The notes: generated from the letters alone by a model not told the origin. DNA of 64,000 bases from Rathayibacter sp. VKM Ac-2760 (GCF_009834185.1 NZ_CP047173.1:1391725-1455724), one strand, 5' to 3'; shown: positions 25,029 to 31,240, numbered from the stretch's first letter. Numbers and translations: made by a program.

Positions 25029-25156
25029 CTTCTCCTCGTACCCCCCTCGTCCGGGTTCCAAACGCGGGGGAGGAGAAGTCGTCCGCTCGGGCGCGTCGGT
25101 CGCCGTCCGCGTCTGCGCGGGTCCGGGGTCTCCGCGGGTCCGGGGATCCGCGCGCC

Positions 25157-25201
25157 TGAGGATCCCGCGTCCGAGGATCCCGCGTCTGAGGATCCCGCGT
25201 C
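25157..25201. repeat. 15-bp tandem repeat x3, YGAGGATCCCGCGTC (each unit contains GGATCC)
   Basis: Three exact or near-exact units, with degenerate copies upstream (about 25120-25156). They lie in the divergent gmhB / GT9 promoter region. Confidence 0.7.
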
Positions 25202-25249
25202 TGAGCCGCTCGGAGCGGGGTACGGGACCTCCGACAGGAAGGAGGCGCC

Positions 25250-26272
25250 GTGCGCGCTCTCACCGCCCCCGACGGCACCCCGGAGATCCTCGCCCTGCGA
25301 GCCCTCAAGCTCGGCGACCTCCTCGTGGCCGTCCCCGCGCTCAAGGCCCTGCGCCGCGGGTTCCCCGAGCACCGGCTGATCCTCGCGACCACGCCCTGGC
25401 TCGAGCCGATCGTCGACCTCGTCGACGGCCTCGACGCGCTCGTCCCGACCCTCCGCGGTCTCGACGACCCGCTGCCGGTCGATCCGGGCCGGATCGAGCT
25501 GGCCGTCAACCTGCACGGCAACGGCCCGGAGTCGCGCGACGCCCTGATCGCGCTGGAGCCGCAGCGCCGGCTCGATTTCCGCGTCCCCGCCCTCGACCCG
25601 GATGCGAGCCACGACGACCCGCGCCCGCTCTGGATCGACGGGGAGCTCGAGCGCGCCCGCTGGGCCCGCCTGGTCAACTCCATCGGCCTCGACGCCGACC
25701 CGGAGGACGTGGCCATCGCCGTCCCGGACGCGCCGGCTCCGGTCGCCGGCGCCGCGATCGTGCACATCGGCGCCTTCTACGGCTCGCGCGAGTGGCCGGA
25801 GGAGCGCTTCGCCGCCGTCGCCCGCTCGCTCGCCGCCGAGGGCCACCGCGTCGTCTACACCGGGGGTGCGAACGAGGCCGACCGCGCCCGCCGCGTCGCC
25901 GAGCTGGCCGGCACCGGCGAGGTGCTCGCCGGCACGATCGACCTGACCGGGTTCGCGGCGGTCGTCGCAGCCTCCGAGGTCCTCGTCACCGTCGACACCG
26001 GAGCCGCGCACCTCGCCTCGGCCTACGGCATCCCGTCGGTGGTGATCTTCGGACCGGCGCCGCCCGAGGCCTGGGGCCCGCCGGTGAGCGGACCGCACGT
26101 CGTGCTGACCGACGCGTCGCTCCGCCGCGGCGACGTCTTCTCCTCCGAGCCGGACCCCGCGCTGCTCGCGGTGCAGACCGAGCACGTGCTCGACGCGCTC
26201 GCCGCTCTGCCCTCGCGCGCCGAGGCGCACCTCAGGCGGTCCGCAGCCGCGCTGCCGGGCGGACGGGCGTGA
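25250..26272 (+). CDS. glycosyltransferase family 9 (heptosyltransferase-like)
   Basis: 340 aa. GGAAGGAGG precedes the GTG. Motifs: LRALKLGDLLVAVPALKAL, VHIGAFYGSREWP, VDTGAAHLASAYGIPSVVIFG. Confidence 0.8.
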   Translation: MRALTAPDGTPEILALRALKLGDLLVAVPALKALRRGFPEHRLILATTPWLEPIVDLVDGLDALVPTLRGLDDPLPVDPGRIELAVNLHGNGPESRDALIALEPQRRLDFRVPALDPDASHDDPRPLWIDGELERARWARLVNSIGLDADPEDVAIAVPDAPAPVAGAAIVHIGAFYGSREWPEERFAAVARSLAAEGHRVVYTGGANEADRARRVAELAGTGEVLAGTIDLTGFAAVVAASEVLVTVDTGAAHLASAYGIPSVVIFGPAPPEAWGPPVSGPHVVLTDASLRRGDVFSSEPDPALLAVQTEHVLDALAALPSRAEAHLRRSAAALPGGRA

Positions 26273-27164
26273 CGGTCGCGACCCGCGCGCGGGCCGCCCT
26301 GGGCTGATGGCTGCGCGAGGGGGCGCCGAGGCGGTCGGCGAGCTGCGCGAGGATCCGGCGCTGCAGCCGCGAGACCTGCATCTGCGTGGTCCCGAGCGCG
26401 TCGGCGATCTGCTGCTGCGTCATCTCCTCGACGAAGCGCATCCGGAGCAGCTCGCGCTGGCCGGCCTCCAGCTCCGCGAGCGCCTCGGCCAGACCGTGCC
26501 GGCGGTCGATCGCGGCGAGGTCCGCGTCGTCTCCGCCGAGCGTCTCGCCCAGGCGGACGCCGGTCTCGCCGACCGACTCGTCGAGCGAGAGCGGGTGCCC
26601 CGCCGAGCGCGCGTCCGCGACCTCGGCCGGGTCGACGCCGAGCCGCCGCGCGATCTCGCGATCGGACGGATGACGGCCGAGCTCCTGCGCCAGCTCGTCG
26701 GCGACGACCGCCGAGCGCCGGTGCAGCTCCTGCACCCCGCGGGGCGGCCGGATCATCCAGCCCAGATCGCGGAGATGGCGCTTCAGCTCACCCGTGATCG
26801 TGGGCACCGCGAACGCGGCGAAGCTGTCGCCGCGCTCCGGGCTGAACCGCCGGGCCGCCTTCACGAGACCGACGTAGGCGACCTGCCGGAGATCCGCGCG
26901 ATCGCCGCCGCCGCGGGAGACCCGGTTCGCCATCGCCTCGGCCAGGCCGAGGTGGTCGAGCACGATGCGCTCGCGGATCCGCGCGCCCTCGGCGTCGTCG
27001 GCGCCGGCCGCCGCCTGGAACAGCGAGAGCGTGCGCGCGTCCTTCTCCTCGCGCGGCGATCCGGCCGCCGGGGGGAGCGCGGGCGGCACGGAGGCGGGCG
27101 GCACAGGGGCGGGCGGCACGGGGGCGGGGAGTGCAGTGGCGGTGGCGAGAACGACCGTGCTCAT
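26232..27164 (-). CDS. RNA polymerase sigma factor, SigB/SigF/SigG (group 3) type
   Basis: The ATG at 27164 follows GGAAGGGG. Region 2 (LRQVAYVGLVKAARRFSPERGDSFAAFAVPTITGELKRHLRD) and region 4 (RELLRMRFVEEMTQQQIADALGTTQMQVSRL) are present. The 3' end overlaps the convergent GT9 gene by 41 nt. Confidence 0.8.
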   Translation of the reverse strand: MSTVVLATATALPAPVPPAPVPPASVPPALPPAAGSPREEKDARTLSLFQAAAGADDAEGARIRERIVLDHLGLAEAMANRVSRGGGDRADLRQVAYVGLVKAARRFSPERGDSFAAFAVPTITGELKRHLRDLGWMIRPPRGVQELHRRSAVVADELAQELGRHPSDREIARRLGVDPAEVADARSAGHPLSLDESVGETGVRLGETLGGDDADLAAIDRRHGLAEALAELEAGQRELLRMRFVEEMTQQQIADALGTTQMQVSRLQRRILAQLADRLGAPSRSHQPRAARARVATVTPVRPAARLRTA

Positions 27165-27353
27165 CGGTACCCCTTCCGGGCATGCTGGCGCCCAGGTCCG
27201 GAGCGGCGGGTTGCGACGCGCTCGTCGTCGAGCGGCCCCGGGAGAAGCGGTGCCCACAGGCCACCACTGCTCCTCTCGTTCTAGAAGTCCGTTGACTCGG
27301 AGCACTGCTTCGCGCTAGGCACCCCGAGCGCACCCGCCTCCGGCACGTCGAAC

Positions 27354-28200
27354 CACCTCCGGCTCGCAGATCCGCGTCCGGCTCGCTGAATCTCCCGTTT
27401 CCCGCGAGCCGAGCCTGTTTCCGCGAGCCGAGCCTCGACCCGTGGCACCTCCGGCTCGCAGAATGACGTCCGGCTCGCCGAATCGCCTGATTCCCGCGAG
27501 CCGAACCGGTTTCCGCGAGCCGAACCTCGGCCCGCGTCACCTCCGGCTCGCAGATTCGCGTCCGGCTCGCTGAATCGTCTGAATCCGGCGAGCCGAACGG
27601 GTTTCCGCGAGCCGAACCTCGGTCCTCGTCACCTCCGGCTCGCAGATTCGCGTCCGGCTCGCTGAATCGCCCGTTTCCCGCGAGCCGAACGGATTTCCGC
27701 GAGCCGAGCCTCGACCCGTGGCACCTCCGGCTCGCAGAATGACGTCCGGCTCGCCGAATCGCCCGATTCCCGCGAGCCGGACCGGTTTCCGCGAGCCGAA
27801 TCTCGGTCCGAGTCACCTCCGGCTCGCAGATTCGCGTCCGGCTCGCTGAATCGCCCATTTCCCGCGAGCCGGACCGGTTTCCGCGAGCCGAACCGCGACC
27901 CGCGTCACCTCGGGCTCGCAGAATGACGTCCGGCTCGCTGAATCACCTGATTCCCGCGAGCCGAACGGGTTTCCGCGAGCCGAACCTCGGTCCGCGTCAC
28001 CTCCGGCTCGCAGATTGACGTCCGGCTCGCCGAATCGCCTGATTCCCGCGAGCCGGACCGGTTTCCACGAGCCGAGCCTCGGCCCGCGTCACCTCCGGCT
28101 CGCAGATTGACGTCCGGCTCGCCGAATCGCCCGTTTCCCGCGAGCCGAACCGGTTTCCGCGAGCCCGACCTCGGCCCGCGCCACCTCCGCCCCGCAGACC
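27354..28200. repeat. tandem array of nine exact-length 92-bp units plus a degenerate tenth
   Basis: Unit starts (CACCTCCGGCTCGCAGA) are at 27354, 27446, 27538, 27630, 27722, 27814, 27906, 27998, 28090 and 28182. Each unit holds 2x CCGGCTCGC and 2x GCGAGCCG (mutually inverted). Confidence 0.95.
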
Positions 28201-28288
28201 CCCCCCGCCCCGCCCACCACTCCGACCCCGCCCCATCCCCCTCCCGCCCCCTCGCTGTCCAGTCCGCCCCCGATCCCCGCCCCGCCGC

Positions 28289-28294
28289 TAGAAT
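28289..28294 (+). promoter_or_regulatory. candidate -10 hexamer TAGAAT for a leaderless or short-leader gltX mRNA
   Basis: TAGAAT ends 9 nt before the gltX ATG and no Shine-Dalgarno lies between them. Leaderless mRNAs are common in actinobacteria. Confidence 0.3.
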
Positions 28295-28302
28295 CGCCGC
28301 GT

Positions 28303-29844
28303 ATGTCTGAGCTCACCCCGCCCTCCGATCGCGCCCACGACGCGCACCCGTTCACCACCGCGACCGGGAGCGACGTCCGCGTCCGCTTCTGCCCGTCCCC
28401 GACCGGGACGCCGCACGTCGGCCTCATCCGCACCGCCCTGTTCAACTGGGCCTACGCGCGGCACACCGGAGGCACCTTCGTCTTCCGGATCGAGGACACC
28501 GACGCGGCCCGCGACAGCGAGGAGAGCTACGAGCAGCTCATCGACGCGCTGCAGTGGCTGAAGCTCGACTGGGACGAGGGCGTCGGAGTCGGCGGCCCGC
28601 ACGGCCCGTACCGCCAGTCCGAGCGCAGCGACGTCTACACCGACGTCATCCAGCGCCTGCTCGCCTCCGGCCACCTCTACGAGAGCTACTCGAACGCGGA
28701 GGAGATCGACGCCCGCAACGAGGCGGCCGGCCGCGCCAAGCAGCACGGCTACGACAACCACGACCGCGACCTCACCGAGGAGCAGCGCGCCGCCTTCCGC
28801 GCCGAGGGCCGCAGCCCCGCGCTGCGCCTGCGCGTCCCGGACGCCGACCTCTCCTTCGACGACCTCGTCCGCGGCGAGATCACCTTCCCGGCCGGCTCGT
28901 TCAGCGACTTCGTCGTCGTCCGCCCCAACGGCCAGCCGCTCTACACGCTGGTGAACCCGGTCGACGACGCGCTCATGCAGATCACCCACGTCCTCCGCGG
29001 CGAGGACATCCTGCCCTCCACCGCGCGCCAGATCGCGCTGTACCACGCGCTGATCGACATCGGAGTGACGACGTTCGTCCCGCGCTTCGGTCACCTCCCC
29101 TACGTGATGGGGGAGGGCAACAAGAAGCTCTCCAAGCGCGACCCCTCGGCCAACCTCTTCCACCACCGCGACCGCGGCTTCATCCCCGAGGGCCTGGTCA
29201 ACTACCTCGCCCTGCTCGGCTGGTCGCTCACCCACGACCGCGACGTCTTCTCGATCGACGAGATGATCGCCGCCTTCGACGTCGCCGACGTGAACCCCAA
29301 CCCGGCCCGCTTCGACCTCAAGAAGGCCGAGTCGATCAACGGCGACCACATCCGCCTGCTCGCGGTCGACGACTTCACCGAGCGCACCATCCCCTACCTG
29401 ATCGCCGCCGGCGTTCTCGAGGGCCGGCCGACCGCCGACCAGCGCGCCGTCCTCGACGCCGCCGCCCCGCTCGTCCAGGAGCGGATCGGCCTGCTCGGCG
29501 AGGCGCCCGGCATGCTCGGCTTCCTCTTCACCACCGCCGACGCCCTCTCCTACGACGAGGACGCGCTGAAGGGCCTGCCCGCGAACGCCGGCGAGGTCCT
29601 CGCCGCATCGATCGGCGCCCTCGAGCTCGTGCCCGAGGGGGAGTGGCTGACCGCTTCGATCCAGGAGGCGCTCGCCGGCGCCCTGATCGAGGGCCTGGGC
29701 CTCAAGCCCCGCATCGCCTACGGGCCGTTGCGCACCGCGATCTCGGGCCGCCGCGTCTCGCCGCCGCTGTTCGAGTCGATGGAGATCCTCGGCAAGTCCG
29801 AGTCGATCGCCCGCCTCGCCCGCCTCGCCGACACCCGGAGCTGA
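28303..29844 (+). CDS. gltX: glutamate--tRNA ligase
   Basis: 513 aa with the HIGH-type motif [15 protein letters not shown] and the KMSKS-type KLSKRD. Confidence 0.95.
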
Positions 29845-29846
29845 TC

Positions 29847-30851
29847 GTGGCGGAGGTGCAGGGCGGCCACTACGACGTCGTCATCATCGGAGCCGGTCCC
29901 GCGGGCCTGTCCGCCGGGCTGAATCTCGTTCGTGCGCGCCGCAGCGTGCTGCTGCTCGACAGCAACCGGCCGCGCAACGCGGCGACCCTGCACTCGCACG
30001 GCTTCCTCACCCGCGACGGCGTCTCGCCGCTCGAGCTGCGCCGCCTCGGCCGCGCCGAGCTGGAGCAGTACGACGAGGCCGAGGTGCACAACGCGATGGT
30101 CACCTCCGTCGAGCGCTCCGGCGGCGAGTTCGTCGTCACCGCGAAGGGCGTCCGCGGCTCGGCCGACCGCTCGGTGCTCGCGACCGCCGTCGTCGTCGCC
30201 GGCGGCCTCTCCGAGCGCCTGCCGACGCTGCCGAGCCTCCGCGCCTACTACGGCACCGCCGTGCACAGCTGCATGGAGTGCGACGGCTACGAGAAGGCCG
30301 GCGAGCCGCTCGCGCTGATCGGCGAGACCGCCGACCTCGCCGAGCGCGCCATGCTGCTCTCGCAGTGGTCGACCGACCTCATCGTCTTCACCAACGGCGT
30401 CGGAGTCGTCAGCGACGCCGACGAGTCGCTGCTCGGCTCGATCGGCATCCGCGTCGAGCGCCGCCCCGTCGCCGACCTCGCGGGGGAGCGCGCCGTGATG
30501 ACCGGAGTCGCCCTCGCCGACGGCGACGTCATCCCGCGCACCGGCGCCTTCGTCCGCCCGGTCTGGGTGCCCGTCCTCGACTACCTCGACCCGGCCGGCC
30601 CCGACGTGGACGCCGACGGCTTCCTCCGCGTCGACGCGGGCGGCCGCACCTCCGTCCCCGGCCTCTACGGCGCCGGCGAGGTCACCGCCCCCGGACCGCA
30701 GCAGCTGATCGTCGCCGCCGGCTCCGGCGCGCAGGTCGCCTCGGCGATCAACCGCGACCTCGTCCGCGCCCGCCTCGGCGAGGCCGCGCCCGAGTCGGAG
30801 GCCCCCGCCATCGACACCCGGGCCGCCGATCTGAGCGACGTCCGTCCGTAG
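29847..30851 (+). CDS. NAD(P)/FAD-dependent oxidoreductase (thioredoxin-reductase-like)
   Basis: The GTG at 29847 lies 2 nt after the gltX stop. Motifs: VVIIGAGPAGLSAG, a redox-type CMEC, GLYGAGEV. Confidence 0.8.
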   Translation: MAEVQGGHYDVVIIGAGPAGLSAGLNLVRARRSVLLLDSNRPRNAATLHSHGFLTRDGVSPLELRRLGRAELEQYDEAEVHNAMVTSVERSGGEFVVTAKGVRGSADRSVLATAVVVAGGLSERLPTLPSLRAYYGTAVHSCMECDGYEKAGEPLALIGETADLAERAMLLSQWSTDLIVFTNGVGVVSDADESLLGSIGIRVERRPVADLAGERAVMTGVALADGDVIPRTGAFVRPVWVPVLDYLDPAGPDVDADGFLRVDAGGRTSVPGLYGAGEVTAPGPQQLIVAAGSGAQVASAINRDLVRARLGEAAPESEAPAIDTRAADLSDVRP

Positions 30852-30887
30852 CCCGGGCCGGTCGATTTGAGCGACGTCCGTCCGTAG
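30817..30887 (+). repeat. 35/36-nt tandem duplication that includes the stop codon of the preceding gene
   Basis: CCCGGGCCGCCGATCTGAGCGACGTCCGTCCGTAG (30817-30851) is followed by CCCGGGCCGGTCGATTTGAGCGACGTCCGTCCGTAG (30852-30887). Confidence 0.8.
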
Positions 30888-30960: not shown

Positions 30961-31032
30961 TGGGGTATGGTGTAATTGGCAACACGACTGATTCTGGTTC
31001 AGTTGTTCTTGGTTCGAGTCCAGGTACCCCAG
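30961..31032 (+). tRNA. tRNA-Gln (anticodon CTG)
   Basis: A hand-folded cloverleaf: acceptor TGGGGTA/TACCCCA, D stem GTGT/ACAC, anticodon stem ACTGA/TCAGT with loop TTCTGGT, and T arm CTTGG-TTCGAGT-CCAGG. CCA is not encoded. Confidence 0.9.
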
Positions 31033-31240
31033 CACTTCTCCTCCTCGCCCTGAGGATCCTCGCCCGGCTGTCGCCCGCCGCTGTTCCGGCTGTGTCGTTC
31101 CGGCAGCGCCGCGCGTCTCGCGCAGGGCCGCTGCATCCCCCGCCCGGCCGACGCCCGACTCCTCCCGGCATGCCACGATGAACCTGTACATCGCTCAGAA
31201 ACCCGCCTCCCGCGGGTTCCGAGAAGGGGGTCTCTCGTCC

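Follow-up and report, generated by a model that had tools for sequence, protein, structure and literature searches.

Rathayibacter sp. VKM Ac-2760 carries an array of tandem 92-bp repeats in the spacer between two divergent genes, which encode a sigma factor and glutamate-tRNA ligase (gltX). We analyzed this array within a 64,000-nt stretch of DNA (GCF_009834185.1, NZ_CP047173.1:1391725-1455724; called the window here, with positions counted from its first letter), together with the same locus in related strains and similar repeats at other loci, which are cited by our locus numbers (L001 and so on). A preliminary description, made from the window's sequence, had reported the array and proposed several functions for it. 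The flanking genes are as it described them, and the features of the locus are as follows.

26232..27164, - strand: SigB/SigF/SigG-like sigma factor gene, divergent from gltX (207 bits, under the 234-bit cut-off; also called in the orthologous loci of relatives)
27292..27321, + strand: promoter-like TTGACT-N18-TAGGCA, found by sequence comparison and present in every Rathayibacter orthologous spacer
27336..27353: degenerate extra direct sub-repeat at the left array edge, with box CCGGCACG at 27340-27347 (two-mismatch match 27340-27367)
27354..28181, no strand: nine 92-bp units, from Tandem Repeats Finder, a unit table, a box map and the family profile (57-69 bits per unit, E 1e-16 to 1e-19)
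27452..27522: example module, in unit 2, with CGGCTCGC at 27452-27459 and 27471-27478 and GCGAGCCG at 27496-27503 and 27515-27522
28182..28254: partial tenth unit, both boxes changed to CGCCCCGC, then turning into C-rich sequence where CCGCCCCGC-like motifs recur roughly every 19 nt
28289..28294, + strand: TAGAAT, -10-like, 8 nt before the gltX ATG (TAGGAT or TAGAAT in L035, L045 and L059-L065)
28303..29844, + strand: gltX, glutamate-tRNA ligase (414 bits, over its cut-off)

The 92-bp units and their boxes

Tandem Repeats Finder called the array at 27354-28198 with a period of 92 and 9.2 copies (matches 87%, indels 0%, score 1249), and slicing the sequence at 92-bp intervals from 27354 yielded nine units (27354..28181) in perfect register. 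Both procedures agree with the earlier count of nine strict units without insertions or deletions, and the pairwise divergence among the units (4 to 16 of 92 positions, mean 10.6 or 11.6%) is close to the one substitution per ten bases that had been estimated by eye. Each unit has the layout CACCTC-CGGCTCGC-(11 nt)-CGGCTCGC-(17 nt)-GCGAGCCG-(11 nt)-GCGAGCCG-(15 nt), where CGGCTCGC occupies unit positions 7-14 and 26-33 and GCGAGCCG occupies positions 51-58 and 70-77. The four 8-bp boxes are oriented > > < <, with start-to-start spacings of 19, 25 and 19 nt followed by 29 nt to the next unit, so that a unit consists of a four-box module and a 21-nt linker. Across the array, 33 of the 36 boxes are exact, bearing out the two direct and two inverted blocks previously assigned to each unit.

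The direct pair CCGGCTCGC-N10-CCGGCTCGC, with at most two mismatches, occurs 19 times in the window and every occurrence lies within 27340-28167, compared to 0.42 occurrences in shuffled sequences. Isolated boxes elsewhere in the window number 27 in 63 kb, without clear enrichment, and a DNA uptake sequence was rejected on this ground. The two sequence flavours noticed earlier are real: units 3, 4 and 6 share CAGATTCGCG, units 2, 5 and 7 share CAGAATGACG, units 8 and 9 have a hybrid flavour, CAGATTGACG, and unit 1 has CAGATCCGCG. Units 1-3 differ from units 4-6 at 6, 5 and 12 positions, a likeness that suggests the duplication of a 276-bp block.

Both edges of the array are irregular. The left edge bears the extra direct sub-repeat, and box mapping showed that three-box left arms are also present in L028, L030 and L033. 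On the right, the C-rich tract that begins with the partial tenth unit (28182-28288, 107 nt) contains 73 C and 16 G (68% C) with twelve C-runs of at least 3 nt, and the sister strains L060 and L062 have no such tract. Its - strand is rich in G-runs, with predicted G-quadruplex potential, and as gltX-sense RNA the tract would be C-rich and G-poor, like a rut site.

A long antisense open reading frame (ORF) does exist at 26788..27858. Inside the array, however, the GC content by codon position is flat (0.69/0.67/0.70), compared to about 0.7/0.5/0.95 in real genes here, and a period of 92 is not a multiple of 3. The array is non-coding, as had been argued before, and a coding repeat was rejected.

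A palindromic repeat family dispersed in Rathayibacter

We searched 185,579 species-representative genomes with the four-box pattern GGCTCGC-N12-GGCTCGC-N14-24-GCGAGCC-N12-GCGAGCC. The scan returned 34 loci, all of them in Rathayibacter, from eight species-level genomes that each hold up to 13 exact-pattern loci, with further degenerate copies at about 1 per 40 kb of flank. Among the species that bear modules are VKM Ac-2754, Leaf185, R. tritici and R. rubneri; R. toxicus and the AY1-type strains are free of them. The central gap was 17 nt in every match, though 14 to 24 nt were permitted. The same module (> 19 > 25 < 19 <) was seen at all mapped loci, mostly as a single copy, and some arms have a third direct sub-repeat. 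Its length is about 80 bp, and its building block is a 19-nt sub-repeat, nnTY-CGGCTCGC-RGRA-nnn, present twice in direct and twice in inverted orientation. An 83-column profile derived from 42 dispersed modules gives every unit of the window 57-69 bits and has no other match in the window's 64 kb. The four-box pattern had no match in viral contigs, the whole array had none in a plasmid database, and a full-text literature search found no description of such repeats in Rathayibacter. The modules make up a dispersed repeat family that had not been described before and that, among the species-representative genomes scanned, is confined to Rathayibacter.

Tandem arrays are also present at other loci, where 29-30 nt between modules produce a period of 92-93: L001 and L003 have 2 units each, L006 has 2.8 units (period 92) and L024 has about 6-7 units (period 92). 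Because this period recurs at unrelated loci, it is a property of the element and not of the sigma/gltX spacer. Consequently, the earlier proposal that strict unit length reflects a constraint tied to the promoter region, such as helical phasing or RNA modules, is not supported for a family that is dispersed genus-wide and usually located past stop codons. The linkers in arrays at unrelated loci have an equal length (21-22 nt) and are partly similar, as in AACGTCCACCCGC (L062) and AACGTCCTCCCAC (L024). This shared length and similarity suggests that the 92-bp unit, module plus linker, may be what is propagated, by analogy with the BIME-2 class of bacterial interspersed mosaic elements (BIMEs).

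Genes around the modules were called crudely from the GC content at third codon positions (GC3). At least 30 of the 41 module clusters lie 0-70 bp (mostly <20 bp) past a stop codon, many of them between convergent genes, and none of the clusters whose position could be resolved lies in a divergent spacer. Alignments of orthologous loci added stop codons beside several modules that the crude GC3 calling had missed. The neighbouring genes are of the housekeeping kind, including dehydrogenases, ABC and MFS transporters, PhoX and M13 peptidases (Pfam, 195 neighbouring ORFs). The array in the window, upstream of both of its neighbours, is an exception to this gene-end location.

Signs of mobility were sought and several classes of element were set aside. 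Among 38 copies, we found no target-site duplication of 3-9 nt at any offset (best 4/38, for a 3-mer), and a miniature inverted-repeat transposable element (MITE) is not supported by this measure, the inverted ends being present and the target-site duplication absent. A crude regular-expression search for the HUH/Y1 motif in the ORFs of the 34 module loci, the festucae-group loci and the window gave no candidate, and Pfam analysis of the 195 module-neighbouring ORFs revealed no recurrent transposase family. An iteron or plasmid origin and a phage attachment site were considered and rejected.

Copy number and unit exchange in related strains

The GltX protein of the window shares 93% identity with a Rathayibacter cluster representative and 99.0% and 98.8% with two R. 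festucae-group cluster members, one of them from R. festucae DSM 15932; an exact look-up found no identical record. By these identities, the window belongs to the R. festucae group. Distant Rathayibacter keep the gene order GT9-HAD-GT9-sigma<->gltX-oxidoreductase-Band7, and their orthologous spacers of 250 bp (L035-L044) and 212 bp (R. toxicus, L045) contain no module. Within the group, the spacer contains the following.

L060, L061 and L065: right arm only (half module, two inverted boxes), in a spacer of about 265 bp
L059 (R. festucae DSM 15932, CP028137, complete genome): a single module of canonical form, its ends GACCTC...GAGGTC
L062, L063 and L064: four 92-bp units
The window: nine 92-bp units

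The flanks are 97-99% identical among L059-L063, and identity of the window's flanks to these is 97.5% toward gltX and 88% toward the sigma gene. A series of 0.5, 1, 4 and 9 units between near-identical flanks makes the array a variable-number tandem repeat (VNTR). Since the copy number varies and the distant spacers have no module, neither gene needs the array or a set copy number. The module is missing from the spacer outside the festucae clade, and therefore it was gained at least once. The preliminary description had named, as counts against its own reading, orthologous loci without the repeat combined with unaffected expression of the flanking genes after its removal, and an array that varies arbitrarily on reassembly. 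Of these, orthologous loci without the repeat and a variable copy number were found, though the variation is natural strain variation and not an assembly artefact. A second locus varies likewise, with 1 module in L023, 1 module and two extra sub-repeats in L032, and the 92-bp array of about 6-7 units in L024. In L059, the recorded sigma gene (2755-4125) encodes 456 aa, reading through the module and overlapping the gltX start, compared to 299-301 aa in relatives; this call is probably an over-extended ORF produced by the stop-free G+C-rich repeat.

Units resemble the other units of their own array. Those of the window differ from one another at 4-16 positions and from the units of L059, L062 and L063 at 20-32, which, from these sequences, is concerted evolution: the units are homogenized within a lineage. 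Between L062 and L063, units 4, 3 and 2 differ at 0, 1 and 4 positions, while unit 1 differs at 13, and the right half of unit 1 in L063 matches unit 3. This unit is a recombinant of other units and, as read from the alignment, the signature of conversion or unequal exchange between them. Where different species share an orthologous single module, its position and boxes are retained, but its 4-nt spacers and loop differ at about one third of positions or more, between flanks that are 95-99% identical (L029:3743-3820 and L021:5649-5728; L029:6597-6675 and L021:2795-2875; L023:4634-4712 and L032:7697-7777). The hypervariable interior probably reflects frequent templated exchange among sub-repeats or copies, and not plain drift by point mutation. 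Inversion of the loop (flip-flop) as the origin of the loop differences was rejected, as it does not fit an alignment by eye.

The array and the lineage-specific C-rich tract fill the non-conserved middle of the spacer, and about 150 bp adjoining the sigma start are conserved in the orthologous spacers. Because the array is confined to this middle, both genes would keep their proximal control regions. The TTGACT-N18-TAGGCA element ends 33 bp before unit 1 and about 15 bp before the degenerate sub-repeat at 27336. In the window (27262-27325) and in L035, L045 and L059-L065, the element, as TTGACT-N18-TAG(G/A)(C/A)(A/G), lies within a 9-bp inverted repeat, CACTGCTCC...GGAGCA(C/G)TG. The element and its inverted repeat are kept from R. 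toxicus to the festucae group, with a -10-like hexamer that does not have the usual final T, and could be an operator or a promoter common to the divergent genes. A scan of 26900-28500 for consensus sigma-70 promoters and terminators made no calls, this element included, and its 18-mer GTCCGTTGACTCGGAGCA had 12 matches in metagenomes, all of them chance matches on unrelated contigs without modules. Next to gltX, the position of the TAGAAT hexamer is consistent with a leaderless or near-leaderless gltX mRNA. As this hexamer sits downstream of the array, a proximal gltX promoter of the leaderless type would be untouched by it.

Pairing, known repeat systems and the origin of the array

Each unit can be folded into the two-tier hairpin proposed for it earlier. 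As RNA, the window's units fold moderately better than their shuffles (z -2.7 to -4.7), with unit 2 reaching -42.1 kcal/mol on the + strand (z -3.6) and -55 kcal/mol on the - strand (z -4.7); dispersed copies reach -43 to -81 kcal/mol, and those compared with shuffles folded very strongly, at -72 to -75 kcal/mol with a z of about -12. The pairing within the window's units derives entirely from the palindromic consensus. Among the 42 dispersed modules, 79.7% of cells are paired, compared to 80.2 +/- 0.5 when partners are shuffled; no covariation measure exceeded the shuffles, and a separate permutation test agrees. In the sister array (L062/L063), both right-arm boxes are GCGTGCCG, which is not complementary to CGGCTCGC, and two units fold at z -0.5 and -1.4. 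The strand bias of G-U versus A-C mismatches relative to the upstream gene is not significant. Rfam 15, at gathering scores, recognizes only tRNA-Gln (30961-31032) in the window and leaves the array unmatched; at E-value thresholds, the array has only sub-threshold matches of the hairpin type (miRNA precursors), of at most 29 bits compared to cut-offs of 47-90. On balance, selection on pairing as such is not demonstrable, and the uniformity of the boxes stems either from selection on their sequence or from biased conversion.

The central T-to-A box variant (CGGCACGC / GCGTGCCG) has spread through one arm of the entire array at L062/L063 3573-3940 and at L024 1056-1595, and thus in two species and at two loci, without a compensating change in the other arm. 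The invariance of boxes among dispersed copies is partly built in by the search pattern; at box-adjoining positions outside this pattern, conservation is 85-95%, compared to 40-60% in the spacers. Boxes have decayed in copies that were not chosen by the pattern (L021:2795, L006:6634, L024 and L062).

By analogy, the closest known systems are the repetitive extragenic palindromic (REP) elements with their BIME arrays and the REPINs, though membership in the REP family is not established. BIMEs are described as regularly spaced REPs in alternating orientations (PMC2817692), and the REPIN concept takes an inverted REP pair as the functional unit (PMC3116915, PMC3337134). A survey of REPs covers eight phyla and never mentions Actinobacteria, and it defines REPs in part by a conserved tetranucleotide, GTAG or CGTC, that stays unpaired at one hairpin end (PMC3733652). 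As in the REP and BIME clusters of Enterobacteria (especially BIME-2), Pseudomonas and Stenotrophomonas, the Rathayibacter modules are extragenic palindromes located mostly just past genes, with alternating orientation at fixed spacing, occurring as singles, dimers and constant-linker tandem arrays at different loci, without target-site duplication and within a narrow taxon. A BIME-like arrangement (> > < <, spacings 19/25/19/29, period 92-93) is found in the window, L062-64, L024, L006, L001 and L003. BIMEs proper are further characterized by binding of IHF, DNA gyrase or Pol I, and REP systems by a single-copy Y1 transposase gene of the IS200/IS605-like kind with repeats on its flanks. The Rathayibacter modules differ in their actinobacterial host and in their arms, each a doublet or sometimes a triplet of a 19-nt sub-repeat and not one 20-40 nt hairpin. 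They also have no unpaired tag (there is no GTAG, and the CCTC or CGTY before the boxes is paired with GAGG or RACG), and no REP-associated tyrosine transposase (RAYT) was found near them. The REPIN-RAYT system of Pseudomonas fluorescens is likewise built on an inverted pair that forms one long hairpin and is inherited vertically at the same sites in related species; in Rathayibacter, however, the crude motif scan and Pfam found no RAYT or other Y1/HUH gene beside the modules, and the arms do not co-vary.

Two other repeat classes share fewer traits with the array. The array resembles the MIRU-VNTR loci (mycobacterial interspersed repetitive units) of Mycobacterium tuberculosis in being an actinobacterial tandem repeat that is intergenic and varies between strains. 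Those loci are 40-100 bp intergenic tandem repeats whose copy number differs between close strains, as it does here at the sigma/gltX locus and a second locus, which places the array among VNTRs or minisatellites. MIRUs are not known to be palindromic four-box modules and lie within operons, often keeping the frame with small overlapping ORFs, whereas the Rathayibacter array is out of frame (92), has a hairpin as its unit and belongs to a family with single copies dispersed at gene ends. Clustered regularly interspaced short palindromic repeats (CRISPR) also have regularly spaced, conserved short blocks between more variable sequence. In the Rathayibacter array it is the entire 92-bp unit that repeats, with boxes in alternating orientation and with 'spacers' of 4-17 nt that vary around a single consensus and are not unique captured sequences; the module also stands singly at many loci. 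No Cas family appears among the Pfam annotations of genes called in the orthologous loci. CRISPR was rejected, in agreement with the preliminary description.

We consider it likely that the array is a copy-variable tandem amplification, of the VNTR or minisatellite type, of a non-coding Rathayibacter palindromic module, and not a locus-specific regulatory device. As single-stranded DNA or RNA, the module would form a long two-tier hairpin, and as double-stranded DNA it could extrude a cruciform. Judged by position alone, single modules at gene ends, a classical place for REP and BIME elements and for terminator hairpins, most likely behave as REP or BIME elements do, as terminators or 3'-end-protecting hairpins, or possibly as binding sites for topology proteins; as terminators, they could act without a U-tract. 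In the R. festucae lineage, one module would have landed in the middle of the sigma/gltX spacer, between the upstream promoter-like element and the -10 at the gltX start. From there, the array may have grown and shrunk by in-register unequal recombination, slippage and gene conversion between units, as suggested by the lineage-specific homogenization, the one recombinant unit and the three-unit block duplication. Its 92-bp period would come from the element (module and 21-nt linker) and not from selection for helical phasing at the locus. The nine units would increase the distance between the upstream element and gltX from about 110 to about 980 bp, nine hairpins would enter any transcript that reads through from this element, and negative supercoiling between the divergent promoters could favour cruciform extrusion. 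The range that close relatives tolerate, from 0.5 to 9 units, speaks for any such effects on sigma and gltX being incidental.

Several observations weigh against this amplification model. For the arrival of a module in a divergent spacer, neither a target-site duplication nor an associated transposase was found, and random duplication breakpoints do not account for a 92-bp period with partly similar linkers at independent loci. Against a terminator role, there is no U-tract, as the consensus of gene-end modules has no T-run, the tendency of the sense strand to fold better falls short of significance (p = 0.14-0.19), and for the window itself an intrinsic terminator was rejected because 26900-28500 contains no hairpin-plus-T-run site and the array is upstream of both genes. 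Finally, the boxes are the conserved part of the unit, as had been noticed earlier. In the window's array they vary in 3/288 cells, compared to 58/540 elsewhere in the unit, a ten-fold difference (Fisher p = 1.5e-8). Such constancy goes beyond what recent amplification alone would leave and hints at sequence-specific selection or biased conversion.

Box constancy is the main ground for a rival explanation to which we assign a minor but real chance, namely that a sequence-specific protein recognizes the 36 boxes and that the array is a cluster or sink of binding sites that couples or insulates the two divergent promoters. The protein could be of the nucleoid or topology class, as gyrase is at BIME-2, or it could be a regulator; a transposase or nuclease that was domesticated and now maintains the repeat family is a further candidate. 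TY-CGGCTCGC-RGRA is conserved while the 4-nt spacers and loop are free, both in the array and at the positions of dispersed copies outside the search pattern, and the spacing is fixed at 19/25/19. Compensatory covariation is absent, orthologous modules keep their boxes while their spacers diverge far faster than the flanks, and box variants have spread in concert in L062/L063 despite the broken complementarity of the arms. The near-identical strains with 0.5, 1, 4 or 9 copies and the other species with none show that no fixed array is required here, and box decay in the pattern-independent copies, the part of dispersed-box invariance that stems from the search method, the absence of clear enrichment of isolated boxes in the window and the lack of a candidate protein beside the modules also count against this explanation. 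The protein-binding array of the preliminary description is thus not supported in its locus-specific version, where copy number is variable, while binding to the much less variable boxes survives as a minority reading. With similarly low expectation, we propose that the 19-nt sub-repeat may be the site of a dedicated Rathayibacter protein, either an actinobacterial counterpart of the REPIN-RAYT system with a different enzyme or a topology or nucleoid protein. If so, the boxes would be held constant while the spacers churn, and the protein would generate in-register 92-bp arrays, which would explain the common period and the similar linkers at independent loci.

The remaining explanations are far less probable. 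Structured RNA modules had been suggested by the preliminary description. They would act as a multi-hairpin attenuator in a long gltX 5' leader or be a source of small repeat-derived RNAs, and would suit both the folding of the units, very strong in dispersed copies, and the array's place downstream of a conserved TTGACT-N18-TAGGCA that points to gltX. We regard this as improbable: covariation is absent, Rfam gives no match that passes its threshold, the element has the same symmetry on either strand without a significant mismatch bias, the sister-array units with their non-complementary boxes fold no better than shuffles, the copy number is free to vary, and gltX keeps its own conserved -10 near the start codon. 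Slightly less credible still is a MITE derived from a DDE transposon with multi-repeat ends, in the style of Tn7, Tn402, Mu or IS21, with the array formed by repeated insertion. Its appeal lies in the inverted-repeat-like ends ACCTCCGG...CCGGAGGT, the 2-4 direct 19-nt repeats per arm and the difference in presence between lineages at the sigma/gltX locus; it is opposed by the missing target-site duplications, by modules at shared sites in different species, which indicate vertical inheritance, by the lack of a recurrent transposase among the neighbouring ORFs, and by in-register 92-bp arrays that are unlike repeated insertion. An assembly artefact deserves almost no weight. Repeats of 92 bp are open to mis-assembly from short reads, but the nine units are mutually distinguishable (4-16 differences), the four-unit array of relatives is recovered in this spacer from independent NCBI and Logan assemblies, with 0-4 differences between orthologous units, and arrays of the same period occur at other loci in other genomes.

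The array and its repeat family matter in several ways. They add to the REP and BIME types, catalogued mainly in Proteobacteria, an extragenic palindromic repeat family in an actinobacterial genus, with nested 19-nt sub-repeats. The natural series of 0.5, 1, 4 and 9 units between the same promoters is a test system for divergent transcription, supercoiling, read-through and BIME-like growth, and the locus is a candidate VNTR marker with which strains of the R. festucae group could be typed. For annotation, such arrays create long spurious ORFs, as probably in the 456-aa R. festucae sigma factor.

Other short repeats lie near the array. The 5' end of the sigma gene contains a 15-bp tandem repeat (GGAGGCGGGCGGCAC, 3.6 copies, 27074-27142) that encodes a repeated N-terminal stretch of the PAPVPP type. 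An intergenic tandem repeat at 25131-25205 (GGATCCCGCGTCTGA, 4-5 copies of 15 bp) lies in the spacer from which the HAD-hydrolase and GT9 glycosyltransferase genes diverge. Beyond gltX, two copies of a 36-bp direct repeat, 91% identical (30817-30887), extend across the 3' terminus of the oxidoreductase gene, including its stop codon; the tRNA-Gln gene (30961-31033) lies about 75 bp further downstream.

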